Of a stretch of DNA of 64,000 nucleotides, positions 12,603 through 59,284 are shown piece after piece (positions within the stretch are counted from its first letter, which is position 1; each line of letters opens with the position of its first letter). This DNA is from an uncultured Patescibacteria group bacterium. GTDB lineage: Bacteria > Patescibacteriota > Microgenomatia > UBA10105 > UBA927. The notes under the pieces were generated by a model. The model was not told the origin of the DNA and searched no databases. It was given only the letters and a program-made list of their open reading frames with translations. The stretch lies in the NCBI GenBank assembly GCA_937921305.1, contig CAKZSU010000002.1:1711-65710 (forward strand), read 5' to 3'. Both the position numbers and the translations under genes were made by a program.

Positions 12603-12607
12603 GCTAT

Positions 12608-13621: not shown

Positions 13622-13624
13622 AGA

Positions 13625-17015: not shown

Positions 17016-17061
17016 ACGGTCTCTATTCTATATAAAAATGTAGTATCATACTATCGCATCT

Positions 17062-18045: not shown

Positions 18046-18046
18046 C

Positions 18047-18751: not shown

Positions 18752-18770
18752 TATATACTTACCCCTGCCT

Positions 18771-19808: not shown

Positions 19809-19850
19809 TCGGCTATTGGCAATCGGCAGTTGATTGTTAGGTGTAATCCT

Positions 19851-30043: not shown

Positions 30044-30114
30044 GGGCTCGTAGTATACCGGTAGAACGTCTCCATGGCATGGAGAAGGAAGGGGTTCAAT
30101 TCCCCTCGAGTCCA
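30044..30114 (+). tRNA. tRNA-Ala (anticodon GGC)
   Basis: Hand-folded cloverleaf. Acceptor stem GGGCTCG/CGAGTCC with a G3:U70 pair (alanine identity). Anticodon stem TCTCC/GGAGA with loop ATGGCAT. T-arm AGGGG-TTCAATT-CCCCT. The D-arm is irregular. No encoded CCA. Confidence 0.55.
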
Positions 30115-30244
30115 CCCCTCCTCAATCCTACATTTAGATAGCGCGAAACCCGTCTACAAACTTCATCGCGGAACACACATTGCAAAGATAGTAATCAATT
30201 GTGATGAAGAAGCAATAATCTTATGGTAGAATAATAATTGCTTT

Positions 30245-30317
30245 GGGCCTGTAGCACAGTTGGTAATGCGCCGCATTCGCATTGCGGAGATCAGCGGTTC
30301 GAATCCGCTCAGGTCCA
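30245..30317 (+). tRNA. tRNA-Ala (anticodon CGC)
   Basis: Acceptor stem GGGCCTG/CAGGTCC with G3:U70. Anticodon stem CCGCA/TGCGG with loop TTCGCAT. T-arm AGCGG-TTCGAAT-CCGCT. Confidence 0.75.
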
Positions 30318-30322
30318 CTAAC

Positions 30323-33781: not shown

Positions 33782-34186
33782 AAATATACAAATTTTCTTC
33801 TTATTGTCTTTGTAAGATACAAAATATCTCTACTTATAGAGTTCTACCATTTTGCTAAACTTTTTGATCTGATACATAATCATGACATATAATAAAGTTC
33901 TCGAATCGTTTAGCTTTTTCATTTACATAAAAAACAGCGTTTGTATATTACATTTCCTTTATTAAGATTTTATCTTACCGCAAAGATTGCATCATACCGA
34001 TTATTTTTTTATCATATTAGTTGTAAAAAGCAGTAAACAACGATGTTAAAGTAACATGTAATAAATACCATCACTCCATCCTTTTTTTAAATGAATTTAT
34101 TGAGAAGATATATTCTAATAAAAAGATGCAAAAAGAAATATATTGTATTAAAAATAATAATCGTTTCATAAAATAGATAATAACTT

Positions 34187-34960
34187 ATGCATGTAAAAAC
34201 ATTTTTTGATTCCATCTGGAAACATAAAATATCTATTATTCTTTTTGCACTATTTTTTTCTCTGTTTGTTTCTATAGTAATCTACAGCATTAGGGCAAAT
34301 CCTAGTATAAAAAATACTATAAAAAAATATACTACTCCTAAAAAAACATATCGAGAACAAGAATTACTTCAAAAAATGAAAACGTTCGCGTTTCGAAACG
34401 GAGAACCTGCTCTTGCAAGAGGTATTACCGGTGGAGCAAAAGATTACGGTGGCAACACAATAAAAGGCGTACTTGCGGATATTACAACCAATCCAATACC
34501 TATCAAAACAAAAGATGGAAAAGAAATTGCAAAATCAATCATGACGTTTACTATTTTCTATATCAATGATTATAACGAGCTTGAAAAAATATATTTATCT
34601 GCAGCCATTCAATTTCCTGATGGATCATATTATCTGATAAGCGATAATCCAATTCGATTACCAAATGATACCGTAAATGATGAATATTATTACGATAAAA
34701 TTGGCACACCAGTATTCGCGCTCTTTCGAACAAATACAACATTAGGGCTAGAAACACTTAAACAACAAGGAAAATCTAAAGAAGAGCTTGATGCTGCAAA
34801 ACGAATTTTTTCATTTATTCAAACATATGAATCAAGCTGGAAGGAAGAACTAGACACGCTTGTTCTAGGAGGAAGAAAAGGAGCGTTGGAATTTCTCTTT
34901 CCTATCGCCTATAGCGATGATAGCTTTCGTCTTGAATATCAAGTATTTACTATTCCTTGA
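34187..34960 (+). CDS. hypothetical membrane-anchored protein (257 aa)
   Basis: N-terminal TM (ISIILFALFFSLFVSIVIYSI). Remainder hydrophilic. Confidence 0.35.
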   Translation: MHVKTFFDSIWKHKISIILFALFFSLFVSIVIYSIRANPSIKNTIKKYTTPKKTYREQELLQKMKTFAFRNGEPALARGITGGAKDYGGNTIKGVLADITTNPIPIKTKDGKEIAKSIMTFTIFYINDYNELEKIYLSAAIQFPDGSYYLISDNPIRLPNDTVNDEYYYDKIGTPVFALFRTNTTLGLETLKQQGKSKEELDAAKRIFSFIQTYESSWKEELDTLVLGGRKGALEFLFPIAYSDDSFRLEYQVFTIP

Positions 34961-36672
34961 CGAATATGAACTACAATGTTTATTCAAAATACTATCATTT
35001 TTTTATTGTCTGCATTTTTATCATTTTATTCTCTAGCAATGGCAAACATATTGTGATGGCTCAAGGGTATTCTACATCATGGTGTCCAAGTGGATGGTGC
35101 ACTGGGGAAAATAGTGGATTATGTTATAAAATGTGTGGAGTAGTTTTTGGAGTATGTCAGCCGACAGAAGGAGAATGGAGATCCTGGACATGTGGTGGAC
35201 ATCAATGTCTCTCTGGTCCTATTTTAGGATGCGGCAGCAATGTATCGTGCTCTAGTAGTGGAGTTACTATAGATAAGTGCGGTAACTGTCCTGGATCGCA
35301 ATATCGAGAATGCGGAACTTATGGAGCTGGATGTTATAATAATGTTAATCAATATGGATGCGGAACAGGATATAGAGGGGTAGCAAATCTAGGAGCATGT
35401 GGGAAAATTATAGAGGGTAGTTGCGCCGAACTTTCTTATCAGCCTATGGAGTGCTGTAGTCCAAACCCAAATCCAAATCCAAGTCCGAATCCAAGTCCAA
35501 GTCCGAATCCAACTTCTCCACCTCCGCCTGGAACATTTCAAGCAAGAGCGAGAAGAATTCCGTACGCAAGCATTGGAAACTGTAGCAATCCATCGGCAAC
35601 CCCCCTCTCTTCTTCCCTTCGCTTTGCCCCAGGAGTTCCTTCTCAAAACTCCGATGGAACATCCTATGCCTCGTGGTCTGTTACTCCTGGGACCTACACC
35701 ATCCTTCCAACGATTACGGAAGAAAATGGTTCTTCGTATGTATTACAAACCGTTTGTGTGTCGCGAGATGGAGGTTCGTTTTTTCCTTCTACGGTTGCTC
35801 AGACTGTAGGAAGCGGACAGACGATCGTGTTCGATCTTCTCTATACCTATGCAACATCGTGGATGCTGGTCGATGGAGGGGATGTAATTGCCTGTCAAGA
35901 TCTTTCTTCTGTTGTTCCTCCTTCTGCTGTTCCCGCGCCATATTTTATACTTGCGTCTGATGGAGGGTATCCTGGGGTAGCGTTGTATGGGACATGGTAT
36001 AGTTTTGATGAGTCACGATTGTATCGAACAGGGAGAGAATCTATTTCTCAGACCGGATGGATTGCGCAGTCTTCAAATCATCCATTGTGCAATACACAGA
36101 AGGTGAATTTTTACAAGGAGTTTGCGCACGCTGTTGATGTGAAAGCGATGACGCCGAAGAGAAATCTTCTTGGAGAACGAACAAAGGATGATTTTCCCGA
36201 CGCAGCGACCTATGTGATTGGAGATCTCACGCTTGGAGGATCTGACGACACGGCATGGGCGCTGTCTCAGAATGAGAAAAAAACGATTGTTGTGGATGGT
36301 AATGTAACCATTCGACGGAATATTACCTATCCTAACGGCGGGTTCTTTGGACTGATTGTGAATGGTGATATCACCATTAATTCCACTGTAGGATCGAATC
36401 CTTCAACAAGAACGCCAAGTCTTCGCGGATTCTATGCCACGAGTCCACAAGGAAGGTTAAACACGGGGAGAAGCACTATTACTGGAAAAGAGAAACTAGT
36501 CATTCTTGGGACCGTTGCGGTGGGGGGGGTAAATCTTCAGCGGAACTTGGATACGATTGGGATGAATCACACAACACCTGGAGAAGAATTCATCTATGAT
36601 ACTCACCTTATCATGAATCTCCCAGAGGCATTCCTTGAAACCAACATCGTTTGGCAAGAAGTCCCCCCGTGA
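34957..36672 (+). CDS. secreted cysteine-rich protein with PNPS-repeat linker and large C-terminal domain
   Basis: Signal/TM at the N-terminus. About 150 aa with more than 25 Cys. Low-complexity PNPNPNPSPNPSPSPNP linker. A ~380 aa C-terminal domain rich in G/T/S/N. TTG start in the track; the ATG at 34966 is more likely. Confidence 0.4.
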   Translation: MTNMNYNVYSKYYHFFIVCIFIILFSSNGKHIVMAQGYSTSWCPSGWCTGENSGLCYKMCGVVFGVCQPTEGEWRSWTCGGHQCLSGPILGCGSNVSCSSSGVTIDKCGNCPGSQYRECGTYGAGCYNNVNQYGCGTGYRGVANLGACGKIIEGSCAELSYQPMECCSPNPNPNPSPNPSPSPNPTSPPPPGTFQARARRIPYASIGNCSNPSATPLSSSLRFAPGVPSQNSDGTSYASWSVTPGTYTILPTITEENGSSYVLQTVCVSRDGGSFFPSTVAQTVGSGQTIVFDLLYTYATSWMLVDGGDVIACQDLSSVVPPSAVPAPYFILASDGGYPGVALYGTWYSFDESRLYRTGRESISQTGWIAQSSNHPLCNTQKVNFYKEFAHAVDVKAMTPKRNLLGERTKDDFPDAATYVIGDLTLGGSDDTAWALSQNEKKTIVVDGNVTIRRNITYPNGGFFGLIVNGDITINSTVGSNPSTRTPSLRGFYATSPQGRLNTGRSTITGKEKLVILGTVAVGGVNLQRNLDTIGMNHTTPGEEFIYDTHLIMNLPEAFLETNIVWQEVPP

Positions 36673-38500: not shown

Positions 38501-40840
38501 TTAGAGCGTTTGATAAATAACGGTGTTTCCAGATCTGAATACCTCACGAGATTCGCTCATTATATCATCCTCTCTCAAGTTCTGAAACTTCTGTCGTTCA
38601 AGCGTTCCGATTACAATATATCGAACAGCGTATTTTTGGAGAATGCGACGACGCTGATAAGCATCACCTTCATATACCAATCGCACCTCGTCTCTTCTCG
38701 GAGCGACAACATCATATGATCCTCGCCACAACCACTCATGCACCGCCCATCCAATAATTGTAGGAGCGCCTGCAAACGCGCTCATTGTGTTGTAATCGGT
38801 ATAACTTTCTCCATCCGCTTCCACAATCACAGGAATGCTATTGAGATGACGGGTAAAAAACGTATCGCGAACATGAACATCCTGTTTCGCTAATCCTCTT
38901 AAAAATGTGTCTGATGTCCGATATCCGACGCCAGACATCTGCCCTCTTAACCAACGCATGGCAGCGTAATCGTCTGGATAGTCTCTCGCAAACCATTGCA
39001 GTCCATCCAACCCCCTATAAACCTGCAATCCGCCAAAATATGACCGTACGGAAAAAAATGGATATATAGACACTAAAAATAACTGTGGCATAAGAAGGAT
39101 GAAAAAGGTTCGCTTCCCCCACAAACGAAGCATAGATGTTTTTTGTTGTTTTGATCGCTCTAACATCTGAACAATGATATACGCGGAAAGCAACGAACAT
39201 ATAATAAACGCCTGATATCCCAACTTAAACATCGTATTGCTTCGGAAATCCGCTGGATAAATATCTTTGAAATAAAAAAATTCCGCAAAGAAAATAAGGC
39301 CAACGGAATAAAGAAATAAAACGATCAACAATCGATTCACTGAATCAACATGAAGATGAATTTGTCCCTTTTCTCGACTGATCCGAATTGTCTTGATTAT
39401 CAACGCAATCCCGCAAAAGAAGAAAAATCCCCACAGAAGCCATATCATCCAAAGCGGCGACCTTTGACACTGCTCAACGGTTTCGAACAACAATGGACCG
39501 ATTTTTGTATTTTCGAAAACTTTTGGCGGGCAGTTCACCGCAAGTCCTGTCGCAAACGACTTGAAATTCAAAAGAAAAGGAAGAGATATAGCGATAAAAC
39601 CAAATGCAACAGACAGAATCTTCGATCCGATATCTTGGATCCACTCCCACGACCACGGTTCGCGCGCGCTCCACCGATACACAAGAATAAGAATACCCAT
39701 AATGCCAAGATAAATCGGACCATCAAGCGCGTTAGTCATAAACAACACACCAACCAGTCCTCCATATAACACAAATGCAACAAGCAATGTTTTATCCTTC
39801 ATCACAAACATAGTGAGAATCGAAGCAATGGCAAGAAGCGCGAATGGAATGCCAAGCACATGCCCATGATTATCTGAAACAACAAATGAATAGCTGGGAA
39901 ACTCGTGAATTGTGAATGGAATAAAGCGCGTCGCGTTAGCGTACCAATAACTATTCATTGATTCCGGAAGTTTCGCGAAGAGTTCGCTTGGCGAGTGCAG
40001 AATCGTCCAAAATGGCGGCGGTGTGTCTTCGTGATGATACCCTTTTGTAAACGCATAAATCGTCTGCATGTTTCCCGATAGCGACACCAAAAACGCGCCA
40101 AGAAGACCTGCAAGGATAAGAAATAATCTTCGAGGTTTTCGTTGCGACAATTGATACCCGAGAACTGTTAATTGAACGCTGATGGAAAACGACATGGTGA
40201 AACACAATGCGAACAATGTCGCAAGCATTAAGTTGTATCCATACGCAAGGTTAATTCCGGAAAGCTTGGAAAGCATTACCATGACAGCGTGTCCGAAATA
40301 GTAGTAATTAATCGTTCCTCCCGCGTACCACATGTCTGGCGGCGGGAAGTAGGGAGCATTCAAAATCGACTGGGCAAACCCGTAATCCATAAACTTTTCC
40401 AAACTTCGAATATCCGGCTCATGCGCTTTGATGAAACTCCAGAAGAACAAACAACAAAAAAAGAAGATCTCAAGAAGCATGAAGCGATTGAGATGAATGT
40501 TTCTTATTCGAGATTGTTTTTTATTATCACTTTGAGATTGTCTCCAAAGATGAAAACCGCGAATGCCACCCTGATGCAAAAAGACACCAATAATCAGCAA
40601 CAATATAACACTTCCAATAATCGTTATTTGGGTAAACGGAAGAATCTTAAAACTCCCAAGATACCAAGAGATAAGCATCGTTCCCGCGATCCCAATAACC
40701 TTCGAAAGCGAATATCCCTCGTCCCACCATGAAGAAAAGAACAATCGAGCAAGAGGAAACGCAGCGGCGCCAATAAAAAATATTACTACCCACCAGAGAA
40801 GGATAAAAAAGAAATCAACAGAGAAGACATCAAAGTTCAT
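38501..40840 (-). CDS. large polytopic membrane protein, GT-C-like (DUF2298-like by recollection)
   Basis: 779 aa. TM1 is followed by SSWWDEGYS (DE motif). More than 12 TM helices. C-terminal soluble domain with HEWLWRGSYD. Confidence 0.45.
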   Translation of the reverse strand: MNFDVFSVDFFFILLWWVVIFFIGAAAFPLARLFFSSWWDEGYSLSKVIGIAGTMLISWYLGSFKILPFTQITIIGSVILLLIIGVFLHQGGIRGFHLWRQSQSDNKKQSRIRNIHLNRFMLLEIFFFCCLFFWSFIKAHEPDIRSLEKFMDYGFAQSILNAPYFPPPDMWYAGGTINYYYFGHAVMVMLSKLSGINLAYGYNLMLATLFALCFTMSFSISVQLTVLGYQLSQRKPRRLFLILAGLLGAFLVSLSGNMQTIYAFTKGYHHEDTPPPFWTILHSPSELFAKLPESMNSYWYANATRFIPFTIHEFPSYSFVVSDNHGHVLGIPFALLAIASILTMFVMKDKTLLVAFVLYGGLVGVLFMTNALDGPIYLGIMGILILVYRWSAREPWSWEWIQDIGSKILSVAFGFIAISLPFLLNFKSFATGLAVNCPPKVFENTKIGPLLFETVEQCQRSPLWMIWLLWGFFFFCGIALIIKTIRISREKGQIHLHVDSVNRLLIVLFLYSVGLIFFAEFFYFKDIYPADFRSNTMFKLGYQAFIICSLLSAYIIVQMLERSKQQKTSMLRLWGKRTFFILLMPQLFLVSIYPFFSVRSYFGGLQVYRGLDGLQWFARDYPDDYAAMRWLRGQMSGVGYRTSDTFLRGLAKQDVHVRDTFFTRHLNSIPVIVEADGESYTDYNTMSAFAGAPTIIGWAVHEWLWRGSYDVVAPRRDEVRLVYEGDAYQRRRILQKYAVRYIVIGTLERQKFQNLREDDIMSESREVFRSGNTVIYQTL

Positions 40841-40880
40841 AGAGCATACTTATAGTAATATAATTATATACAGGGAAAAC

Positions 40881-42521
40881 ATGAAGCGCAATAAAAAAAA
40901 AATTCATTTTCACCACCTCATCTATCTCGGTTTTTTTCTCTTCTCGTTTTACCTCATGACACATACCTTTGGCTACGATTCAAAGAAACATCATATCGTT
41001 ATCGCATCTCGATTATGGAGTGATTTTGGCGCGCACATCCCGCTCATTCGCTCGTTTTCTTTTGGAGACAATTGGCCACCGGAGTACCCATTATTTCCAG
41101 GAGAAAAGATTCGCTATCACTTTCTGTTTTATTTCATCGCGGGGATGCTGGAACGGATAGGAGTTCGGATCGATTGGGCTATAAATATTCCAAGCATTCT
41201 TGGTTTTTTCCTTCTTCTTATTATGATCTATAAACTTGGAACCCTTCTCTTTGAGAGAAAAATTGTCGGCGCGATAGCTGTTGTCTTTTTCCTCTTTAAT
41301 GGATCGCTCTCGTTTCTAAAATTTTTTGAAAAACATCCGCTCGGGCCATCAACGATTCGCGATATTCTCACGCTTAATCAATTTCCAACGTTTGGACCAT
41401 GGAGCGGAGATCTCGTCACCGCGTTTACACACTTGAATGTATACACAAATCAACGTCACCTTGCGCCATCATTCGCAATTTCCCTCTTCATCATATACGC
41501 GCTTATGAAGCGAGAAAAACAGCATCACGGTAAAAAAATAGCATCAATCATTCCACTCTCACTTGGCATCGGCATGTTGGTTGGCAGCCTCTTTTTTCTG
41601 AATCACCCTGTGCTTCTTATTACTGTCATTTTCTGTTGCTATCTTTTTCTTTTTCATGCAACAACGCGAGCTCCTCTGTTGATTGCCGGCATAACAAGTC
41701 TTCCTTTTCTTTTCCTGTTTTTTAAGATATTTCAACCATCAGGAATGCCTGTTTGGGATATTGGCTACCTATCAAAAAAACCATTTGCATGGACTACATT
41801 CTTTGAATTTTGGCTCCATAATTTTGGATTTCATCTTTTTCTTATTCCTATTGGATTCCTTCTCGCGCCAAAACGGATCCGCTTTCTTTTTCTCCCCATG
41901 CTCATCCTCTTCACGATTCCAAACATGTATCGCTTTTCACCTGATATGATCAATAATCATAAATTTTTTAATTTCTTTACCATCATCGGCGGCATGTACA
42001 GCGCGCATGTTCTCTTCAGACTATTTCAAATTCGCTTTGTTTTTTTTAAGATTCTGGCGATTGCGCTTCTTTTCTTCTCTACATTCTCAGGGATATTGGA
42101 CTTTATAGTAATTCACAATGATTACTATATTTTCATGCAAGACATCCCAAAAAATAAAGATGCCGCGTTTATCGCCGACTTTACCGAAAGAGACGCCGTG
42201 ATTCTTAACAGCACATGGTTCCATCCAGCGTCAATCGCGGGAAGAAAAATTTATAATGGGTACTTATTCTTCACTTGGTCAGCAGGATACCCAGCATTTG
42301 AACGAGAAGCAGTTGTGAAAATGATTTACCAATCAGAGGATCGCAAAACTATATGCTCACTCCTTCAACGAGAAGGAATATCATATGTGGAGCTCAATCG
42401 AAACCCTGAAAAATTTTTAGAGCCTATTGGTATGATCTGGGAAACATTTAAACCATGGTACGATAATAAAAAAACCGGGATGAGACTCTATAGAACACAA
42501 GATCTTTGTGAGCACCTATGA
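40881..42521 (+). CDS. polytopic membrane protein, putative GT-C glycosyltransferase
   Basis: 546 aa with many TM helices. Arranged divergently from, and adjacent to, other GT-C genes. Confidence 0.4.
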   Translation: MKRNKKKIHFHHLIYLGFFLFSFYLMTHTFGYDSKKHHIVIASRLWSDFGAHIPLIRSFSFGDNWPPEYPLFPGEKIRYHFLFYFIAGMLERIGVRIDWAINIPSILGFFLLLIMIYKLGTLLFERKIVGAIAVVFFLFNGSLSFLKFFEKHPLGPSTIRDILTLNQFPTFGPWSGDLVTAFTHLNVYTNQRHLAPSFAISLFIIYALMKREKQHHGKKIASIIPLSLGIGMLVGSLFFLNHPVLLITVIFCCYLFLFHATTRAPLLIAGITSLPFLFLFFKIFQPSGMPVWDIGYLSKKPFAWTTFFEFWLHNFGFHLFLIPIGFLLAPKRIRFLFLPMLILFTIPNMYRFSPDMINNHKFFNFFTIIGGMYSAHVLFRLFQIRFVFFKILAIALLFFSTFSGILDFIVIHNDYYIFMQDIPKNKDAAFIADFTERDAVILNSTWFHPASIAGRKIYNGYLFFTWSAGYPAFEREAVVKMIYQSEDRKTICSLLQREGISYVELNRNPEKFLEPIGMIWETFKPWYDNKKTGMRLYRTQDLCEHL

Positions 42522-44299
42522 AAATAAACCAATTCTTAATTCCTTTATGGTGTATCGTAATTGCGTTTGGCGCGATCACGCGATGGCATGGTAACGACTG
42601 GGACCAAGGGAATCACCTGCATCCAGACGAACGTTTTTTAACCATGGTCGCAAACGCTATGGAGTGGCCAATAACGATTCAAGAATACTTGAATACAGGC
42701 GAATCAAAACTCAATCCACATAACATTGGCTTTCCTTTTTATGTGTATGGCACATGGCCGGTTATCTTCGTCAAATACGTTGCGGAGTCATTAGGAAAAG
42801 GAGATTATTATCATCTTACGCTCATTGGACGATTATTGTCGGGATTGACTGATCTTTTCATCTGCATCTTCATCTTTTTAATCGGAAAAAGATTATCATT
42901 TCTTTTATATAGTTATGTAAATCATTCTCGTCATATCATTGTAGGACTCGTCGCTATGACCCTCTATATTCTTATGGCGCTTCCGATCCAACTTTCTCAC
43001 TTCTTCACAACCGATCCATATGTTACGGTGTTTCTTGTTGTATGCGTCTATCTTCTTCTCTTTTCACCTTCATGGAAAACCGGAGCGCTTCTCGGCGTTT
43101 TTGCAAGTCTCGCGGTATCAGCAAAAATCTCTGGTGTTTTAATCCTTCCAATCATTGGCGTTAGCCCCCTTCTCTATTTGGTATATAAAAAAAAACTATA
43201 TGATAAAAAGAATGCTTTCAAATATATAAAGAAAAAGAGTATTCAATTGTTCATTTTTTATATTTTATTTTCAATCTTTTTTATTTTGTCATTTCGAATT
43301 CTTATGCCCTACCTTTTTGATTCTTCTCAGATATTTTCTTTCAATCAAAAAACACTTGATAACTGGCGGACATTGAACAGTTTTGACGATCCGAATGGAT
43401 GGTTTCCCCCGGCGGTGCAATGGATCAATCAACCGAAACTCATTGCGCCGCTTTTCATGATCTTTTTCATCGGTCTTGGCCCGCCGCTTGGCATCCTTAT
43501 CACTGTTTCTCTTATATGGATGGTTACACAACTAAAACATGCCATCATTCTCCTTTTGCCTTTCTCATTTATTGGCATAATCTTTTTCTATCACGCGATG
43601 GGATTCGCCTTCCCTCTGCGATATTTTTGGCCTATGTATCCCATGCTCGCAATCATTTGCGGTCTTTGGATTGAGTCAATGTATCATCGATACGCTCATC
43701 GGCGGATCGTGTTAATTGGTTTAACAATTATTATCTTGCTCCTCCTTGTCTGGCCAACCGCAGTTCTTTTGCTATATGCTCGTCCTCATAGTAGAGTAAC
43801 AGCGTCTCAATGGATCTATGAAAACATCCCTGAAGGAAGTGCGATCAGTTATGAATATTGGGATGATCCTCTCCCGCTCCATCTTCCAGAATCTCCCGGA
43901 AGCAAAATCTATAAAGGTGTTGAGCTTCCCATGTATTTTCCCGATACAGAAGAAAAATGGATCGAGATAGAGACAAAACTTGAAGAAATCGATTACGTTA
44001 TCTTGTCCAGCAATCGCGTCTACGGATCGATTCTTTCAGCGCCGGAACGATACCCAAAAACGGCAAAGTTTTATCGTGACCTCTTTTCAGAACGACTTCC
44101 GTTTGAAAAAATTGCAGAATTCACTTCGAGACCTTCGCTTCCGCTCCCTATTAATCTTTGCATTCCAATACCATGGTTTTCGTATGGGAAAATAAACCAA
44201 TCGCATGTCTGTCAAGGCATCGAATTTATCGATGATTATGTCGAAGAATCATGGACCGTGTACGATCATCCAAAAGTGACAATATTTAAGAGAAAATAG
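42518..44299 (+). CDS. polytopic membrane protein, GT-C-like with HPDERF motif after TM1
   Basis: 593 aa. NDWDQGNHLHPDERF acidic motif in the first loop. 4-nt overlap with the upstream gene. Confidence 0.45.
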   Translation: MKINQFLIPLWCIVIAFGAITRWHGNDWDQGNHLHPDERFLTMVANAMEWPITIQEYLNTGESKLNPHNIGFPFYVYGTWPVIFVKYVAESLGKGDYYHLTLIGRLLSGLTDLFICIFIFLIGKRLSFLLYSYVNHSRHIIVGLVAMTLYILMALPIQLSHFFTTDPYVTVFLVVCVYLLLFSPSWKTGALLGVFASLAVSAKISGVLILPIIGVSPLLYLVYKKKLYDKKNAFKYIKKKSIQLFIFYILFSIFFILSFRILMPYLFDSSQIFSFNQKTLDNWRTLNSFDDPNGWFPPAVQWINQPKLIAPLFMIFFIGLGPPLGILITVSLIWMVTQLKHAIILLLPFSFIGIIFFYHAMGFAFPLRYFWPMYPMLAIICGLWIESMYHRYAHRRIVLIGLTIIILLLLVWPTAVLLLYARPHSRVTASQWIYENIPEGSAISYEYWDDPLPLHLPESPGSKIYKGVELPMYFPDTEEKWIEIETKLEEIDYVILSSNRVYGSILSAPERYPKTAKFYRDLFSERLPFEKIAEFTSRPSLPLPINLCIPIPWFSYGKINQSHVCQGIEFIDDYVEESWTVYDHPKVTIFKRK

Positions 44300-44305
44300 T
44301 AGATT

Positions 44306-44989
44306 TCATCGCTTCGCTTTTATATGACCAACATGAGGAACGCCGCGAGTTGGAATGATATCAACAGTAAATCCAGCTTTATAAAGGAGATTGACAATCA
44401 TCTCTTTTGTCTTTTCTTCAAATTCATGATACTCCATGCTTAGTTTCTTTATCTTCTTCAACGCGGGCAGTGAATGATCGTTGATCATGTCATATTCGCA
44501 TCCTTCACAATCCATTTTGAAAAAATCTATGCGCTTATACCGCTTAATAAGCTCAAAAAGAGATATGGGTCTATCAATAACGTGAATAGTAGAGACATTA
44601 TTTTCTTGAATATTCTTTCGAAGTAACGCAAGATAAGTTGGATCAATTTCAACCGCAACAACCGTTGCCGATGGATATCGTTTCGCAACACTGATGGAAA
44701 AATCACCAAATCCAGCGCCAACATCAACAATTACCTTATCGTCATGTTCTACATGAACAAATAATGATTCGTATTCTTGATCAAGAATTACCTCTTTTGC
44801 AACTAATAAGTCGAGTACCGAATGAAAAGAAAGCGTAATCTGGTATGGGCGATAGAATACTAGTTTTTTGATAGTAAGTATTGGAAGGAAGTGAACAGAC
44901 CCCAGCAATGCATGTAATGAAGCAATATAATACGGGAAACGATAAAATTTCGGAAGATTTTTTTGTACCATGCTACTTTTCCAAAACAA
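44306..44989 (-). CDS. FkbM-family methyltransferase
   Basis: VDVGAGFGDFS SAM-binding motif and the Methyltransf_21-like pattern FKMDCEGCEYDMI. Confidence 0.7.
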   Translation of the reverse strand: MFWKSSMVQKNLPKFYRFPYYIASLHALLGSVHFLPILTIKKLVFYRPYQITLSFHSVLDLLVAKEVILDQEYESLFVHVEHDDKVIVDVGAGFGDFSISVAKRYPSATVVAVEIDPTYLALLRKNIQENNVSTIHVIDRPISLFELIKRYKRIDFFKMDCEGCEYDMINDHSLPALKKIKKLSMEYHEFEEKTKEMIVNLLYKAGFTVDIIPTRGVPHVGHIKAKR

Positions 44990-45806
44990 GAATAATATTT
45001 ACTGTTGAAACATCGTCTGCTTCTGTATCTCGATTTTTATGATCTCTCACATATATAAAGGATCGAAGGAAAGAAAAGAACTTTGAATGATGATTCAGAG
45101 ATCGAAACCGATAACATTCAGGCAACAATCCTAACTCAACAATATTTTTCCCAATGCTATACAGCAAGAAATGAGAAAAAGGAATGCAGTAATGCGTCGA
45201 GAGAAAAACACGACGAACCGAAAATCCAACGGAACGCGCTTTATCAATAAGTTCGTTTTTTTCATACAATCGTTCATGATCCGCCCAAATGCCGGCAAGC
45301 CACCAGATATCCTTTGGCACATGCGTATGAAACATCCGCTCCAATACCCAATTCAACGGATCCCAGAAAAATGGATAATGCTTATTTGGAACCGTGATCA
45401 CAGCAATTCCACCTTTTTTCAAAACGCGATACATTTCGGATAATCCTTTGGTATCGTCTGGAAGATGTTCAAGCACTTCTGTCGCAAACACGCGATCAAA
45501 TCTATTTGCCTTCCACGGGAGATTGAGTGCGTCCGCGTTAAGAAATTCAATATGCTGAGATTGATTCATCTTTCTTGCAATATCCAAATATCGATCATTC
45601 GTGTCGATTGCGACAAGCCGAAGATTCTGATATAAGAAAGAAAGTAATCCTTCATAATATCCTCGCCCGCACCCAATTTCCAACACCTTCTCTCTCCCGG
45701 AAAGACGAAGCGATTGAACAAGAATTCTTGCCCGCCTTGCAAACGCTGGGTCAAGCTCGTGAAAAAGATAAGAAGATAGCTTATCTTCTACCAAATCGAT
45801 CTTCAT
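44973..45806 (-). CDS. class I SAM-dependent methyltransferase
   Basis: VLEIGCGRGYY motif I. Later LKKGGIAVI motif. Confidence 0.7.
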   Translation of the reverse strand: MKIDLVEDKLSSYLFHELDPAFARRARILVQSLRLSGREKVLEIGCGRGYYEGLLSFLYQNLRLVAIDTNDRYLDIARKMNQSQHIEFLNADALNLPWKANRFDRVFATEVLEHLPDDTKGLSEMYRVLKKGGIAVITVPNKHYPFFWDPLNWVLERMFHTHVPKDIWWLAGIWADHERLYEKNELIDKARSVGFSVRRVFLSTHYCIPFSHFLLYSIGKNIVELGLLPECYRFRSLNHHSKFFSFLRSFIYVRDHKNRDTEADDVSTVNIILVLEK

Positions 45807-46924
45807 CTCGCCACCTCTTGAATTAGTTTCTCATACTTATCGAGTGTTTTTGCATAGTCAAACATCGATAGAACTTTGTCCTTGTTTTTCTTATACCGCG
45901 ATGGATTTCGCACTACTTCGCATATTCCCCTCGCAAGATCTTCTGGATCTTCGGGCTTTACCAAGACACCCATACCAGTTTCTTTCACTGGGACGCGTGC
46001 GCCGGGAATATCTGTCGCCACCACAGGAACGCCGGCAAGCATCGCTTCTACCTGAACAAATGCAAGACAATCGCTTCGCGACGGTAACACAAATACATCA
46101 AGGCTTGTATAAAACGAAGGCATCTCTTCTTGCGAACGCTTGCCTAAAAACAAAAGATATGGACGGAAACGCTCGATGAGCGGCAACATTCGCTCATAAA
46201 ACCGCTCGTATGACATGCGCGTTTCCCCAGAAAACACAAAAAGCGCGTTAGGATATTTTTTTAACACAAAAGGAATAGATTTAATCAATATATCAAACCC
46301 TTTTTCCTCGACAAATCTTCCCGCAAACCCAATGATTGGTGTCTTTCCTTTCGGAAGAGCAAGCGTCTTCCTCCGTTGTCTATCATCCTGAGGAAACAAT
46401 GAAAGAATTGCGGTTGTTTTATGGAGAAATCGAGACAAAAATCGAGAATGTTTTGCATAATCGTCGCTGTAAGCGATCAATCGATCCGCAAGTATTCCAG
46501 CGATGCGACTTGAATAATCAAATATCAATTCAATCATTCTATTGATCGCTCCTTTTGGAAGAATCAAATCGCCATTATGAATAATGATCATCTTCTTTTT
46601 TTGAATTTTAGCCATCGCGATGATCAAAACAACTTCGGCAAGTGGCGTGTACACGATCACGCAGTCAGCATCGTTTATCAAGCTCCATGACTTAAACACA
46701 AACGATGGGGACACAAGAGTACGAGACAAACGAAACCATACAGGACAACGAATCACTTGAACACCTCGAATTGTTTCAACAAGAGGAAGCGACGCGTCAT
46801 GCTGCGTCGCGATGACGCGAACCGAATAACCTCGATCGACAAGTCCTTCGGCAAGACGCCTCGCGTGCTCCGTGAGTCCTGTCCAATGCGGCGTGTAATA
46901 CGTAAGAACAAATAGTAGTTTCAT
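45803..46924 (-). CDS. GT4 family glycosyltransferase (GT-B fold)
   Basis: C-terminal FVLPSRSDCLAFVQVEAMLAGVPVVATDIPG carries the E-x7-E motif. Confidence 0.8.
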   Translation of the reverse strand: MKLLFVLTYYTPHWTGLTEHARRLAEGLVDRGYSVRVIATQHDASLPLVETIRGVQVIRCPVWFRLSRTLVSPSFVFKSWSLINDADCVIVYTPLAEVVLIIAMAKIQKKKMIIIHNGDLILPKGAINRMIELIFDYSSRIAGILADRLIAYSDDYAKHSRFLSRFLHKTTAILSLFPQDDRQRRKTLALPKGKTPIIGFAGRFVEEKGFDILIKSIPFVLKKYPNALFVFSGETRMSYERFYERMLPLIERFRPYLLFLGKRSQEEMPSFYTSLDVFVLPSRSDCLAFVQVEAMLAGVPVVATDIPGARVPVKETGMGVLVKPEDPEDLARGICEVVRNPSRYKKNKDKVLSMFDYAKTLDKYEKLIQEVAR

Positions 46925-47508
46925 TGTTTTTTAACAATATACTCCAATGCTTGTTGTAAATATGGAAATTTCTTTTCGTATGGATGGAAACGATCAAGAA
47001 GATTGTAAATCCATAGAATCTCTGTGCTTGTCGTTCTTGACAAGTGCTCAACAATATCAAGATTATCCTCAACAAAATAATCAAATCGATTTTCTTTTAT
47101 AACTCGTTCTTTGTACAGATGGGGTTGATGATCCCGTTCGTTCACGGTAATTGATGAAAATATACGTTCCAAATCGTATCGTCGAAGCCATTGATACAAT
47201 CGATCCTGAAGAAAATGAAATCGCGCGGTCACAAGATGCGCTTCTATCCGATCTTGTTCGACAAACTCCCGCAATAAATCAACGCCATTCGCCGGAAACA
47301 CGCTCGACTCGTGAAGAATTGTCCATAGTATTTTTTCAACACTCGATTGCGGAATGTAAAACTTCGTCTTCTTAATTCCAAGCATGTTTTTTTTCACATA
47401 CGCAATGGGAGCGCGGATAATCCGAAACGGATTATATGCAACGACGCCGTCAAAATCGACGCCAACAACGATACGGTTCTTTTTCTTCATTTGTTTACGC
47501 TCCTCCAA
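46921..47508 (-). CDS. HAD-like phosphatase/nucleotidase-fold protein
   Basis: Motif I VGVDFDGVV. Motif II LVTAR. Acidic motif FVEDN near the C-terminus. Overlaps upstream UbiA gene by 14 nt. Confidence 0.5.
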   Translation of the reverse strand: MEERKQMKKKNRIVVGVDFDGVVAYNPFRIIRAPIAYVKKNMLGIKKTKFYIPQSSVEKILWTILHESSVFPANGVDLLREFVEQDRIEAHLVTARFHFLQDRLYQWLRRYDLERIFSSITVNERDHQPHLYKERVIKENRFDYFVEDNLDIVEHLSRTTSTEILWIYNLLDRFHPYEKKFPYLQQALEYIVKKQ

Positions 47509-48463
47509 TACCGTACACTACAATCATAACCATCGCAAACCAACATATCATCGTAAGAATCAACGGTTTATCTTTTGTTACCAAATTAATTAACACTTCT
47601 TTTCCAGAATAGACTAATTGAAGATACCGCATAATCGCGTATAAAACAAACGGCGCGGTAAGCATCATCCACTTTCTGCCTAAAATTGGAAAAATATAAT
47701 CTGTGTACCCTCGAAAGAGAAATCCGTCTTCCGACACTGTGGAAAGAAAAGTAAAATATGTATAAGCAAGAAAAGACGAACTTGCAAAGACAGAAATATA
47801 TGCATCTAGTATTTTTTCTGGATAATGAAAAGATTCATTACTAAATTGGCGAACAAGAGACAATTCACTCCGTCGTTTTCCTAACGCAAGCAACAACGAA
47901 ACAGAAAGAACCGTCAGGAAAAACCATACAGACATGACAACTCCTCCTGCCTTCTCTCCAGCCATAATCCGCAGCATATACCCAGACGCGATCATTAATA
48001 CATCAATGATAGGAACTTTTCGAAAAAAGAAGTACGAAAGATAATGAAGAAACACAAACATAAACGCGATGAAAAAAAAGGGCTGCCCGACAAAGAACGC
48101 AAGCAAAACCCCACATAATCCAAAAAGAAGCGACGCGCCTAACGCGTCGCGAAATGATAAATCGCTTTTTGCGATCGGACGATTCTTTTTTTGCGGATGC
48201 ATGGCGTCTTGCTTCGCGTCAAGCAAATCATTCAAGATATAGTTTGATGATGATAACAAACAAAATGCAATTGCCCCAATCCCAACAGGAACAAAACGAT
48301 TGACATGAAACAATGTGCCATCGAAAAGAATCGGTAAGAAGAGTCCAAGGTTTTTGATCCACTGTCGCGGGCGAGCCGCCGTAATAATGTGGCGAACGCT
48401 ATTCATGACACGAAAAAAAATAAATCCAATACGGGATATGTATCGTATCATACTCTCATTCAC
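47495..48463 (-). CDS. UbiA-family prenyltransferase, decaprenyl-phosphate phosphoribosyltransferase (DPPR synthase)-like
   Basis: ARPRQWIKN N-terminal motif. NDLLDAKQDAMHPQKKNRPIA matches the ND-x2-D-x3-D...HP-x-K-x2-RPIA signature of Rv3806c-type enzymes. LGKRRSEL second motif. About 8 TM helices. Confidence 0.7.
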   Translation of the reverse strand: MNESMIRYISRIGFIFFRVMNSVRHIITAARPRQWIKNLGLFLPILFDGTLFHVNRFVPVGIGAIAFCLLSSSNYILNDLLDAKQDAMHPQKKNRPIAKSDLSFRDALGASLLFGLCGVLLAFFVGQPFFFIAFMFVFLHYLSYFFFRKVPIIDVLMIASGYMLRIMAGEKAGGVVMSVWFFLTVLSVSLLLALGKRRSELSLVRQFSNESFHYPEKILDAYISVFASSSFLAYTYFTFLSTVSEDGFLFRGYTDYIFPILGRKWMMLTAPFVLYAIMRYLQLVYSGKEVLINLVTKDKPLILTMICWFAMVMIVVYGIGGA

Positions 48464-48521
48464 TTATGATAGAGGAAAATCCCTTCTTTCCTCTCCTCTA
48501 TTATTTGTATATGCTCATGAC

Positions 48522-49616
48522 ATGACTATCGTTGCAGTAAATCCCGGAAGTTCTTCCATAAAACTTGGCGTATATACTGTCAAAGACAACAACCATATAC
48601 AAGAAATAAAAAGAATAACAATTCCTTTAGGGGGAATAACGATTCAAGACAAGCTTTTTCAAGAACTTTCATCATATGATCCTTCTGATACAATATTTGG
48701 CATCCGCATCGTGCATGGAGGATGGAAATATACAACCCCAATTAGTGTTGATGAAGAAGTCTATCGATATCTCGAAACAATCACGCCGCTTGCTCCTCTG
48801 CATTTACCGTTTGCAATTGAAACCATTGATACGATTCGATCCTTTGCTCCATCGTCAAATATTATTGCGGTATTTGATACAGAATTTCATAGCACGATGC
48901 CATCCGTCGCTCGACACTACGCAATTCCAAAAACGATTGCCGACACTTATCATATCTACCGATACGGATTTCATGGACTCGCGTACGCATCAATGCTTCG
49001 ACTCTACGCCACACACTGTGGCATTCCCGAAAATCAAGCAACATTCATTGGTATTCATCTTGGAAGCGGGTGCAGTATGTGTGCCATACAAAATGGACGA
49101 TCAATAGATACGACGATGGGATTTTCACCACTCGAAGGACTGCCATCAAGAACACGATCTGGAACTATTGATCCAAACATCGTTTTATACCTACAACAAC
49201 AGACAGGTCAATCAGTAGAAGCAATCATGACATTGCTCACTCGCGATTCTGGACTCAAAGGGCTTTCGCAAACCGATGGACACATACAACACATTCTTAC
49301 CGCCAACACAGCGGACGCGACATTTACCATTGATTTTCTCATCTATAAGATTCTTGCTGTTATCGGTTCGTATGATATAATTCTTCAAACACAGGCGCCC
49401 CTTGTTCTTTCTGGCGGCATCAGCGAGCATACGCCCACTCTATGGAAACGCCTTACCGATTACCCCTTACTTAGGGTCACTCTTGCTCATCACGCGATTG
49501 ATCATATCACTCGACCATTCGATACAATCTCATCACCCGACTCTCCTCGACCTCTATACATCGCATTTGTGAATGAAGAAGAAGAAATAGCAAGAAAAAT
49601 CTTGAATACGCTGTAA
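48522..49616 (+). CDS. ackA: acetate kinase
   Basis: VAVNPGSSSIK, RIVHGG, FDTEFH, RYGFHGLAY, HLGSGCS, MGFSPLEGL, SRTRSGTIDP and SGGISEHT motifs. Start taken at the internal ATG (MTIVAV...). Confidence 0.85.
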   Translation: MTIVAVNPGSSSIKLGVYTVKDNNHIQEIKRITIPLGGITIQDKLFQELSSYDPSDTIFGIRIVHGGWKYTTPISVDEEVYRYLETITPLAPLHLPFAIETIDTIRSFAPSSNIIAVFDTEFHSTMPSVARHYAIPKTIADTYHIYRYGFHGLAYASMLRLYATHCGIPENQATFIGIHLGSGCSMCAIQNGRSIDTTMGFSPLEGLPSRTRSGTIDPNIVLYLQQQTGQSVEAIMTLLTRDSGLKGLSQTDGHIQHILTANTADATFTIDFLIYKILAVIGSYDIILQTQAPLVLSGGISEHTPTLWKRLTDYPLLRVTLAHHAIDHITRPFDTISSPDSPRPLYIAFVNEEEEIARKILNTL

Positions 49617-49639
49617 CTCTCCATGGTATACTCATCTTC

Positions 49640-50914
49640 ATGTCAATAGCAATCATCGGCGGAGGAATTACTGGACTAACCACAGCGTATGAACTCACAA
49701 AATATGGAAATGCGGTGACCATCTTTGAAAAAGAAAAAACCGTAGGAGGATTAGCGCGAGGGTACAAAAAACCTTCATGGCAATGGCATCTTGAATATAC
49801 TTATCACCACTTATTCACCAACGACACTGCGATCATCAACCTCGCAAAAGACCTTAAACTGAAAGACGATCTTCTTGTCAAACGACCAATCACCGCAACG
49901 CTCTGGAACAGTACTGTGTATCAACTTGACTCTCTTTCTTCTCTTCTCTCTTTTCCAGGACTCTCTTTTGCAGGAAAACTTCGCACGGGGATATTCCTGG
50001 CAAGTATGAAAGTAAATCCTATTTGGAAACCACTTGAATGGATCACGGCAAAACACATCGCCATCACGCTTGGAGGAAAAGAAGGATGGCAAACAATATG
50101 GGAACCGCTCATGGTAGGAAAATTTGGCGAATACGCAGATCGGATCGCTGCATCGTGGCTGTGGGCAAGAATCGTAAAACGAACACCCAAACTAATCTAT
50201 TTTCGCGGAGGATTTCACACATTCATTACAACGCTTGAAAATGCAATACAAAAGCGCGGCGGAACGATCATCACAAACGCGCGAATAACTTCTATACAAC
50301 GCTTCAACAATGAATTTTCTATCATGTACAATAAAAAACAAGCCCTTTTTGACAAGGTGTTACTCACCATTCCAACACCTCTCGCCCTTTCGCTTACAAA
50401 AGACCTCGACCCGCAAGCATACCGCGATCAATTCCAAATTCCTCACCTGCACGCGCAAGTACTCGTTCTTGAAACAGCAACACCAATCCTTAACGATATC
50501 TATTGGCTAAATATCACCGATCGATCATTTCCATTTCTCGCTGTTGTAGCGCACACAAATTTTATAGATCCATCATATTACGGAGGAAAGCATCTTACCT
50601 ACATCGGCAACTATCTCCCTTCTGACCATTCGTTCCTTTCAATGAACACTCAAAATCTCTTAAAAATCTTTACCCCATATATACAAAAACTCAATCCAAC
50701 ATTTTCTCCACGAAAAGCAAACGCTACGCTGTTCATTGGTCCGTTCGCGCAACCAGTGCATGAACTGCGATATTCGCGCCGAGCACCGACAATTCGCACG
50801 CCAATTCCGAACCTTTACTTTGCAAACATGGATGCAATCTTCCCATGGGATCGAGGAACAAATTACGCGGTGGAACTTGGACAAATCGCTGCGAAAGAAA
50901 TGATGAAGACATAA
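49640..50914 (+). CDS. FAD-dependent oxidoreductase (GR2-type Rossmann; protoporphyrinogen-oxidase/UDP-galactopyranose-mutase-like)
   Basis: IAIIGGGITGLTTAYEL dinucleotide-binding motif and GGLARG. The YHHLFTND segment resembles the Glf HIFHTND motif. Confidence 0.6.
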   Translation: MSIAIIGGGITGLTTAYELTKYGNAVTIFEKEKTVGGLARGYKKPSWQWHLEYTYHHLFTNDTAIINLAKDLKLKDDLLVKRPITATLWNSTVYQLDSLSSLLSFPGLSFAGKLRTGIFLASMKVNPIWKPLEWITAKHIAITLGGKEGWQTIWEPLMVGKFGEYADRIAASWLWARIVKRTPKLIYFRGGFHTFITTLENAIQKRGGTIITNARITSIQRFNNEFSIMYNKKQALFDKVLLTIPTPLALSLTKDLDPQAYRDQFQIPHLHAQVLVLETATPILNDIYWLNITDRSFPFLAVVAHTNFIDPSYYGGKHLTYIGNYLPSDHSFLSMNTQNLLKIFTPYIQKLNPTFSPRKANATLFIGPFAQPVHELRYSRRAPTIRTPIPNLYFANMDAIFPWDRGTNYAVELGQIAAKEMMKT

Positions 50915-55540: not shown

Positions 55541-55659
55541 CCTCGGCGATGACCTATCTTCCAATAGCTCGCGAGAGCTACGTATTGTTGGCGCTGAACC
55601 GTTTTACTTCTGAGTTCGGAATGGGATCAGGTAGTTCCAGTTCGCTCAAATCACCGAGA
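55541..55659 (-). rRNA. rrf: 5S ribosomal RNA
   Basis: Reverse complement contains the conserved GATCCCATTCCGAACTCAGAAG loop C/helix III region. Ends pair (TCTCGGTG.../...CGCCGAGG). A hairpin plus T-tract follows on the minus strand. Confidence 0.75.
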
Positions 55660-55771
55660 CAATTCTGTTTTTTTGAACCGCATTGAATATGAGTCAATTG
55701 CCTAAAAAGGGGCAATGTGCATCCGCATTTTTCTGCATACGGTAATCGCCGTCACGGAAAAGGACCCTTTA

Positions 55772-58980
<3,209 letters not shown>

Positions 58981-59171
58981 AGAACAAAAGGCTTTTGTTC
59001 CGGCGACTCTTTTTTATGGCATAAAAAAAGAGGTGAATGTCATTACCCCTTTTCATGCAACTACTCATTCAATGTTTCAATGTTTTTCCCTATTCACTTG
59101 TTAAAGTGCAACACTGTACTCACGAAGCAATACCTACGATGACATTGCTTCATCATCGTCTGTATCGCATC

Positions 59172-59244
59172 GTAATGGAGTGGACCTGGGCGGAGTCGAA
59201 CCGCCTACCTCTTCATTGCAAATGAAGCGTTCAACCAGGTAAAC
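59172..59244 (-). tRNA. tRNA-Ala (anticodon UGC), upstream of 23S
   Basis: Acceptor stem GGGCCTG/CAGGTCC with G3:U70. Anticodon stem CTTCA/TGAAG with loop TTTGCAA. T-arm GGCGG-TTCGACT-CCGCC. No encoded CCA. Confidence 0.75.
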
Positions 59245-59284
59245 TTCAGGCCCTTCGACTTCGCTCAGGATACTGTCCCAACAC

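Follow-up and report, generated by a model that had tools for sequence, protein, structure and literature searches.

The gene cluster described here occupies positions 38501-50914 of a 64,000-nucleotide stretch of DNA (referred to throughout as the window) from an uncultured Patescibacteria group bacterium (contig CAKZSU010000002.1), and we consider it probable that it is the version, in Microgenomates, a group within the Candidate Phyla Radiation (CPR), of a lipid-linked pentofuranose glycosylation pathway. It encodes a UbiA-superfamily protein of the decaprenyl-phosphate 5-phosphoribosyltransferase (DPPRS) type, or polyprenyl-phosphate (PPPRS) type, a phosphatase candidate of the HAD superfamily, a GT4 glycosyltransferase, three GT-C membrane glycosyltransferases and a flavoenzyme; the catalytic residues of the UbiA and HAD proteins are conserved, the genes are arranged in operons and the set recurs in other genomes. 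CPR bacteria (Patescibacteria) account for much of bacterial diversity and almost none have been cultured; the locus predicts that Microgenomates form a pentofuranose donor linked to polyprenyl phosphate and possess a whole set of GT-C enzymes for its use.

Organisation of the gene cluster

The genes of the interval are listed in window coordinates, with strands as given. All ten open reading frames (ORFs) of an initial annotation, which had been made from the DNA letters alone, were found in place or a few codons off.

38501..40840, minus strand: DUF2298 / Chlor_Arch_YYY membrane protein, 779 aa (unit 1; PF10060, TIGR03662)
40881..42521, plus strand: 546-aa GT-C glycosyltransferase, distant DUF2298 relative (unit 2; no Pfam model)
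42518..44299, plus strand: 593-aa GT-C glycosyltransferase, distant PMT_2 (ArnT/PMT-like) relative (unit 2; no Pfam model)
44306..44989, minus strand: FkbM-family methyltransferase, variable accessory gene (unit 3; TIGR01444 fkbM_fam 2.2e-16, Methyltransf_21 4.5e-10)
44973..45806, minus strand: class-I S-adenosylmethionine (SAM)-dependent methyltransferase, variable accessory gene (unit 3; Methyltransf_11 1.3e-21)
45803..46924, minus strand: GT4 (GT-B) Leloir glycosyltransferase (unit 3; Glycos_transf_1 6.6e-29, Glyco_transf_4 9.6e-11)
46921..47508, likely start 47490 (189 aa), minus strand: HAD-superfamily phosphatase candidate, soluble (unit 3; four HAD motifs)
47495..48463, likely start 48451 (318 aa), minus strand: putative UbiA-superfamily polyprenyl-phosphate 5-phosphoribosyltransferase, DPPRS/PPPRS type (unit 3)
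48173..48235, minus strand: UbiA catalytic loop-II signature, N77-D78-x2-D81-x3-D85 ... H88-P89-x-K91-x2-R94-P95-I-A97
48522..49616, plus strand: acetate kinase (unit 4; Acetate_kinase 1.4e-71; 364 aa on the public contig)
49640..50914, plus strand: FAD enzyme with amine-oxidase fold, soluble (unit 4; NCBIfam PRK07233 family)

These genes form four transcription units. In unit 2 the two GT-C genes share a 4-nt overlap, and unit 3 (UbiA-HAD-GT4 followed by the two methyltransferases) is co-directional throughout, its junctions being overlaps of 4-17 nt or a 5-nt gap, with a 4-nt overlap between the HAD and GT4 genes that points to translational coupling. The initial annotation had the HAD gene overlapping the 3' end of the UbiA gene, which is true of the ORF coordinates, but the starts in the public gene calls (47490 for HAD, 48451 for UbiA) leave a gap of 5 nt. 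The GT4 protein, the FkbM methyltransferase and the class-I SAM methyltransferase, named from the sequence in the first instance, were all confirmed by family models. The 546-aa, 593-aa and HAD-like proteins were assigned to no family in scans of Pfam and NCBIfam.

The acetate kinase gene lies within the interval and had gone unmentioned; its true start is at 48522, and a 433-aa ORF starting at 48315 is an over-extension of it which runs into the UbiA gene. This gene stands between the UbiA and flavoenzyme genes in this genome only, being missing in the related loci L004, L006, L007, L008 and L010, where the position is empty or is occupied by a PMT_2 GT-C gene or another gene, and it is a lineage-specific insertion outside the glycan system.

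The UbiA protein belongs with the phosphoribosyltransferases

The UbiA protein matched PF01040 (E 2.4e-16, 60.2 bits compared to a cut-off of 34.2) and scored 155.7, 150.4 and 103.8 bits with three NCBIfam DPPRS models and 142.7 bits with PRK08238, a 482-position model of a HAD-UbiA fusion, while other UbiA subfamilies scored far lower (generic prenyltransferase 41 bits, heme-o synthase 31, UbiA (4-hydroxybenzoate prenyltransferase) 23 and GGGP transferase 23). Its only matches in the PDB were the Rv3806c entries 8j8j and 8j8k (E 2.9e-21), the alignment covering residues 21-313 with 28.5% identity over 277 residues. By these scores (104-156 bits, compared to at most 41 for the other subfamilies) and by its sole PDB match, the grouping with DPPR synthases put forward in the initial annotation was borne out, and the protein did not cluster with the quinone prenyltransferases.

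The signature ND-x2-D-x3-D...HP-x-K-x2-RPIA, which had been pointed out before, is indeed present at 48173-48235 (minus strand), and N77, D78, D81 and D85 together with H88-P89-x-K91-x2-R94-P95 are invariant in 29 homologues, as is K195-R196-R197-x-E199, which contains the loop-IV R-x2-E (R196/E199). The spacing of these motifs is that of N247/D248/D251/D255 and R366/E369 in Citrobacter ORF15, in which alanine mutants of N247, D248, D251 and D255 had activity abolished or strongly reduced and R366A and E369A were still active, though both residues sit in the active site (PMC11127046). Judged by its sequence, the protein is a member of the DPPRS/PPPRS subfamily and not a MenA, UbiA, heme-o or DGGGP synthase, but because its scores fall under the NCBI equivalog cut-offs it is a divergent member and no equivalog by the NCBI criterion. 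It very probably makes polyprenyl-P-ribose-5-P. A 100% identical copy of the 318-aa protein is found on public contigs, and these CPR proteins already bear the name decaprenyl-phosphate phosphoribosyltransferase in public annotation.

Nearly all Gottesmanbacteria have a second DPPRS-like UbiA paralogue, of about 312 aa (loci L011-L085, for example L032 8982-10948). It sits in another conserved gene context, with a Glycos_transf_4 (MraY/WecA-type) gene directly upstream, a PEGA/SH3 protein downstream, and a GT2 and a 445-aa protein with multiple transmembrane (TM) segments in its surroundings. Both paralogues are present in some genomes; L029 and L010 share one contig.

Three membrane proteins belong to the GT-C class

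The initial annotation had called the three adjacent membrane proteins GT-C-like, and this was upheld for the 546-aa protein by its fold and for the other two by profile-profile comparison. The 779-aa protein is a DUF2298 member (PF10060, 1.5e-90; TIGR03662, 449 bits compared to a cut-off of 300) with about 13 hydrophobic segments, and hhalign linked it to the 546-aa family with 97.5% probability (E 6e-12, 480 columns). The 593-aa protein, with about 10 hydrophobic segments, was linked through its family to a PMT_2-positive family from related loci (f10; 99.0%, E 4.7e-18, 322 columns). BLASTP found no similarity among the three membrane proteins, and direct hhalign gave the 593-aa family no link to either the 546-aa or the DUF2298 family (1.3% and 17.8%), so the GT-C status of the 593-aa protein rests on the link to the PMT_2 family.

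Both families without a Pfam model have invariant acidic residues near the N-terminus: H-P-D37-E38-R-F after the first TM helix in the 593-aa family and W46-S47-D48-F49 after the first hydrophobic segment in the 546-aa family. D48 and D37-E38 may lie in the first extracytoplasmic loop. The 546-aa family, which is found throughout Microgenomates with all members annotated 'hypothetical', has the GT-C membrane fold and an AglB/STT3-like C-terminal globular domain.

Likeness to EmbC/AftD, which the initial annotation had suggested looking for, was not borne out. In the structural ranking of the 546-aa protein, ALG12, STT3B and AglB stood above AftD (17.5) and AftA (17.3), with AftB at 13.5 and EmbA at just 8.0, and none of the proteins matched Arabinose_trans or a related Pfam family of the Emb/Aft type (GT53/GT85/GT89, AftD). 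The three membrane proteins are thus GT-C enzymes, none of them Emb/Aft-like in particular, and they would use the product of the UbiA protein and the phosphatase.

Elsewhere in the window, a further PMT_2-type GT-C is encoded at 21140-22687 (plus strand; hhalign 95% to the 593-aa family), and its 587-aa neighbour at 22677-24440 (minus strand) has no family and a weak profile similarity to GT-C families (up to 40%).

The gene set recurs in independent genomes

The set of flavoenzyme, UbiA-HAD-GT4, the 593-aa and 546-aa GT-C proteins and DUF2298 was found again in L004, L006, L007 and L010 and partly in L008, with UbiA identities of 49-67% across these five loci, and the core set was found also in the more distant metagenomic loci L087, L092, L093, L109 and L114. 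A collection of 80 metagenomic loci was anchored on the 593-aa GT-C protein and their ORFs were clustered; 29 of these loci had at least 5 kb of sequence on both sides and are termed well covered below. The same gene set emerged whether loci were anchored on UbiA or on the 593-aa GT-C protein, and this recurrence in independent genomes under two anchors indicates that the arrangement is not due to chance. What varies among loci is the GT4 subtype (31-54% identity), the methyltransferases and the extra PMT_2 GT-C genes: the class-I methyltransferase gene is present in L004 and L007 and is replaced by an SDR epimerase in L006, and the FkbM methyltransferase is confined to 8-9 related loci.

In the distant relatives L107, L116, L122, L125, L132, L143 and L163 (at about 3000-9000) the flavoenzyme/UbiA-GT-C cassette follows directly downstream of pilN-pilO and of a gene for a Big_13 protein, all on one strand, with MurJ, LytR-CpsA-Psr (LCP), UvrD and FemAB in the flanks. 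Further PMT_2 GT-C genes belong to the wider surroundings. Such surroundings are an envelope-assembly neighbourhood and hint at glycosylation of pilin or the cell wall; no pil genes adjoin the cluster in this window.

Many of the records that contain these loci (for example L007, L009 and L011; third-party annotation assemblies) are titled 'uncultured Gammaproteobacteria bacterium', which is probably a mislabelling, their genes and gene order matching Gottesmanbacteria/Patescibacteria records.

The phosphatase slot and the GT4 partner

The HAD-like protein (a 195-aa ORF with no TM segment predicted, hence soluble) was searched against Pfam and NCBIfam, as the initial annotation had advised, and matched no family at E values up to 5; its four catalytic motifs emerged from the alignment of 36 homologues, in which D17xD19, T/S-x-R95, K132 and (E/D)D147 are fully or almost fully invariant. 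Single homologues gave isolated weak matches to HAD-IB, HAD-IIB or e(P4) models. The family is a small one (153 representatives at E ≤ 1e-3, among 1.84 billion), and in the PDB its profile found nothing beyond weak matches, one of them to a 5'(3')-deoxyribonucleotidase and one, with E 0.004, to the phosphatase domain of Pnkp1.

A phosphatase beside the UbiA gene had been predicted in the initial annotation, and a candidate with the four HAD motifs is indeed adjacent, but the tie between HAD and UbiA is weaker than had been supposed, as it is to GT4 that the HAD family is fused. The HAD gene adjoins UbiA here and in nine related loci; at least nine representative clusters are fusions of 550-600 aa with the HAD domain at the GT4 N-terminus.

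The best evidence that this slot encodes a phosphatase of lipid-linked phosphoribose is the displacement of HAD by a membrane phosphatase. Among the 29 well-covered loci, HAD stood beside GT4 in 23, a PAP2-superfamily phosphatase stood in its place between GT4 and DUF2298 in four, and no locus had both. The PAP2 protein (189 aa; L129 5840-6409, plus strand, with equivalents in L123, L132, L134, L143, L153, L158 and L163) was found solely in loci that have UbiA and lack the flavoenzyme, UbiA being present in all eight of the PAP2 loci in which this could be assessed. Rv3807c, the neighbour of Rv3806c, is likewise a PAP2 phosphatase (PMC3229680). We infer that the HAD protein is a candidate 5'-phosphatase of polyprenyl-P-ribose-5-P, the 5'-phosphate being taken off by HAD or, in sister loci, by PAP2.

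The GT4 protein is the commonest neighbour of the 593-aa GT-C protein (54 of the 80 loci), and its best relatives in the PDB are the sucrose-phosphate synthase Tll1590, PimB', GlgA, MshA and PimA, to which its similarity is confined to the generic donor-binding domain. That the GT4 protein might itself be a glycan phosphoribosyltransferase (gPRT) dependent on phosphoribosyl pyrophosphate (PRPP), with HAD acting as the PRP phosphatase, was considered and rejected, as Pfam shows in it the two domains of a canonical GT4; gPRT reportedly has a distinct fold.

A possible, though not a likely, alternative is that HAD and GT4 are a self-contained two-step unit in which an acceptor that bears a phosphate is first glycosylated by GT4 and then dephosphorylated by HAD, the UbiA product being dephosphorylated by something else or used otherwise. 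The fusions, the 4-nt gene overlap and the occurrence of the pair without a local UbiA gene in 19 of the 29 loci all suggest that HAD may serve the GT4 reaction instead, and the solved GT4 relatives include enzymes with phosphorylated acceptors (sucrose-phosphate synthases, MshA) and with lipid acceptors (PimA, PimB'). However, the pair is always found among GT-C genes with no solute-synthesis context, the likeness to the solved relatives does not extend beyond the donor-binding domain, and the membrane PAP2 lipid-phosphate phosphatase replaces HAD exactly where UbiA is present, which argues for a lipid-linked phosphate as substrate. In one version of this alternative the phosphorylated acceptor would be the UbiA product itself, giving a lipid-linked disaccharide, and here it overlaps with a ribose-primed lipid-linked glycan, which is taken up below.

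The flavoenzyme

The flavoenzyme belongs to NCBIfam PRK07233 (383 bits compared to a cut-off of 252) with an Amino_oxidase match from end to end, and no other protein of the cluster is as well conserved (54-64% identity across Microgenomates). In relatives it is encoded beside UbiA or, where UbiA is absent, in UbiA's place before the GT-C pair; it was not found in any of the nine PAP2-type loci. Its best structural matches were phytoene desaturase (PDS) and protoporphyrinogen oxidases (PPOX), with UDP-galactopyranose mutase (UGM) and amino-acid oxidases in the same fold class at only slightly lower Z.

The initial annotation had called this protein Glf-like, and the H-x-F-x-T-N-D segment on which that was based does align (YHHLFTND with AHIFHTND of E. 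coli Glf), so that the flavoenzyme and UGM share this segment as well as the fold class, but the alignment spans residues 3-72 only (hhalign 91.7%) and the profile likewise matched UGM 1i8t in the N-terminus only (E 6e-5). There was no match to the GLF domain (PF03275), for which the E. coli Glf control gave 6.3e-86. Identity as Glf was rejected on these grounds, and the flavoenzyme is a member of the PDS/PPOX/UGM fold class that is PDS/PPOX-like and not Glf. Its role in the pathway is a matter of speculation, and it may represent a new route for modifying lipid-linked pentoses.

It is also conceivable, though we think it unlikely, that the substrate of the flavoenzyme is not the sugar but the isoprenoid carrier, whose polyprenyl chain it might, for example, desaturate or saturate to give a dedicated lipid carrier. 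The PDS-like structural matches would suit such a role, but UGM and amino-acid oxidases follow at nearly the same Z, and the flavoenzyme also occurs in loci without a local UbiA gene.

Proposed pathway

In the pathway that we favour, the UbiA enzyme would, at the cytoplasmic face, move ribose-5-phosphate from PRPP to polyprenyl phosphate, a step for which the sequence argues strongly, giving polyprenyl-P-ribofuranose-5-P. The 5'-phosphate would then be removed by the soluble HAD protein, or in sister loci by the Rv3807c-type membrane PAP2 phosphatase. At a third, speculative step, GT4, the two methyltransferases and the flavoenzyme may act cytoplasmically on the lipid-linked sugar or on an acceptor glycan, the flavoenzyme perhaps oxidising or otherwise modifying the lipid-linked pentose or the polyprenyl carrier; the parts given here to GT4 and the methyltransferases are equally speculative. 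After flipping, the three GT-C enzymes would use polyprenyl-phosphate-linked donors outside the membrane, so that a cell-envelope glycan or glycoprotein is built or decorated. No DprE1-type (FAD_binding_4) or DprE2-type (SDR) partner was found among the window ORFs of at least 150 aa, which makes it more likely that the transferred sugar is ribofuranose, or a derivative produced by other chemistry, than arabinofuranose.

Several observations weigh against this pathway. The UbiA protein does not reach the DPPRS equivalog cut-offs (155.7 compared to 234 bits, 150.4 to 207 and 103.8 to 474), and its identity to Rv3806c is just 28.5%. No relation was detectable between the HAD protein and the published PRP phosphatases or the N-terminal half of PRK08238 (the PRP comparison used NF006088 and PRP-containing PDB chains at E up to 10; the ORF15 sequence itself was not compared), and there was no HAD-UbiA fusion among 150 HAD-family representatives, in which the fusions are to GT4 instead. 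Of the 23 well-covered loci with HAD and GT4, 19 have no UbiA within 10 kb; the UbiA paralogue of about 312 aa is encoded elsewhere in many of these genomes and might supply the UbiA-less loci. Lastly, no MATE, GtrA, SMR or Wzx flippase was recognisable in the cluster or the window.

A bolder version, which we consider distinctly unlikely, is a ribose-primed and new type of lipid-linked glycan. Here UbiA would load polyprenyl phosphate with ribose-5-P, and GT4 (fused to HAD in relatives) together with the methyltransferases would, at the cytoplasmic face, lengthen the primer and add methyl groups to it. The flavoenzyme would oxidise or isomerise the lipid-linked pentose or the carrier independently of DprE1, and the DUF2298-type GT-C enzymes (with the AglB/STT3-like C-terminal domain) would attach the product to protein or to the cell wall. 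If true, three steps of this pentofuranose-based pathway would be carried out by new enzyme families.

A mycobacterial-type arabinofuranose pathway, in which polyprenyl-P-ribose is epimerised, Emb/Aft-like transferases use the product and a Glf-like mutase adds galactofuranose, is highly doubtful. It was the direction in which the initial annotation had pointed, and the DPPRS-type UbiA protein and clustered GT-C enzymes would fit it, but the window holds no DprE1/DprE2 partner among its ORFs of at least 150 aa, the GT-C proteins have no Emb/Aft family match and the flavoenzyme is not Glf.

That the genes are mere neighbours, with UbiA an ordinary quinone or lipid prenyltransferase that has no functional tie to the glycosyltransferases, is scarcely credible: the sub-cut-off DPPRS scores and the many related cassettes without UbiA would allow it, but the other UbiA subfamily models gave at most 41 bits, Rv3806c is the sole PDB match, the overlaps are of operon type and UbiA recurs with the same partners under a different anchor gene.

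Other features of the window

A separate nucleotide-sugar/glycan locus lies at 8820-20483, with two GT2 genes, a DegT aminotransferase, a GNAT protein, an NTP transferase, three genes of SDR epimerase/dehydratase/RmlD type, a PylC-like ATP-grasp protein and a HAD_2 phosphatase. Within it are a split transketolase-like pair (14443-16198) and a 163-aa ORF (12111-12602) with about four TM segments and no family, which could be a small flippase.

Large proteins of secreted or surface type are encoded at 25317-29668 and 31565-36672 (both plus strand), among them one at 25317-27200 with an NPCBM/NEW2 carbohydrate-binding domain and proteins of 822, 738 and 571 aa without a confident family. Between these lie two tRNA-Ala genes (GGC and CGC, 30044-30318) and an M23/LysM peptidase (30323-31429).

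At 55541-59253 (minus strand) there is a 23S rRNA gene of 3209 nt, compared to 2925 nt for the model, which implies insertions, with the 5S gene following it and a tRNA-Ala(TGC) upstream of the 23S gene. There is no 16S gene in the window, the next gene being an aminotransferase, and the rRNA genes look unlinked in this genome; unlinked rRNA genes are commonly reported for CPR bacteria.

Comparison with known systems

Likeness to the mycobacterial pathway (Rv3806c, Rv3807c, DprE1/DprE2, Rv3789 and Emb/Aft) lies in the phosphoribosyltransferase, which is of the same subfamily, in the clustering of several GT-C genes and, in sister and related loci, in PAP2 accompanying UbiA as in Rv3806c-Rv3807c and in an LCP ligase and MurJ nearby. 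The present cluster differs from it in having no DprE1/DprE2, no Emb/Aft match and no Glf/GlfT, in having HAD in place of PAP2, and in the 28.5% identity to Rv3806c.

In Pseudomonas aeruginosa, arabinofuranosylation of pilin involves TfpW and homologues of DprE1/E2. That system resembles this one in combining a PPPRS homologue with a GT-C transferase outside the Actinobacteria, whereas here there are no DprE1/E2 homologues and no adjacent pilin gene, the pilus link being positional and in relatives only. A DPPRS ortholog of P. aeruginosa has been put forward as the source of undP-Araf in the glycosylation of type IV pili (cited in PMC11127046).

The GT-C proteins differ from AglB/STT3/PglB and the ALG mannosyltransferases in having no detectable sequence similarity to them and no WWDxG-type motif among their conserved residues. 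As in the SPS/SPP and MshA/MshA2 systems, a GT4 is paired with a phosphatase (fused in relatives), and the nearest solved relatives of the GT4 protein include SPS and MshA, but here the pair sits in a GT-C/UbiA envelope cluster with no solute-synthesis context and the phosphatase is of another HAD family.

In Citrobacter youngae O1/O2 the system consists of ORF15 (PRP-PPPRS), the MATE flippase ORF14, the GT-C enzyme ORF12 (GT136) and an optional SDR epimerase, ORF13, and it was established by experiment that undecaprenyl-P-ribofuranose is made by a DPPRS-like synthase to which a HAD phosphatase is fused, and that a GT-C enzyme transfers it outside the membrane (Kelly et al., PNAS 2024, PMC11127046). 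This lipid-linked sugar can be converted to Xylf or Araf by SDR or DprE1/E2 epimerases (PMC11127046). Shared with C. youngae are a DPPRS-like UbiA protein in which the loop-II N/D/D/D and loop-IV R..E residues agree, a HAD-fold phosphatase, GT-C proteins as the presumed consumers, and accessory genes that are optional and swappable, including an SDR epimerase in the relative L006. The differences are that HAD is here a separate protein of another, unnamed HAD family (fused to GT4 in relatives), that there are three GT-C proteins of DUF2298 type or PMT_2-like compared to one GT136, that there is no MATE flippase, and that the PDS/PPOX-like flavoenzyme, GT4 and two methyltransferases are extra, in a CPR organism.

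The Citrobacter work makes two statements of the initial annotation outdated, namely that polyprenyl-P-pentofuranose donors are used exclusively by Emb/Aft enzymes, since the Citrobacter GT-C uses undecaprenyl-P-ribofuranose, and that such a pathway would be notable outside the Corynebacterineae, since systems have been published in Gram-negatives, Gram-positives and phage (PMC11127046). Within the collection of papers that was searched, none was found on a lipid-linked pentofuranose pathway in CPR bacteria, nor on the function of DUF2298. The locus is real and conserved and the core idea put forward for it was right, the general principle having already been established in other bacteria. Testable functions can now be offered for two large 'hypothetical' membrane families without a Pfam model, for DUF2298 and for an unnamed HAD family. 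What is new here, compared to the known systems, is the recurrent HAD-GT4 fusion, the replacement of HAD by a PAP2 phosphatase of Rv3807c type in UbiA-bearing relatives, and the flavoenzyme as the most conserved unexplained partner.

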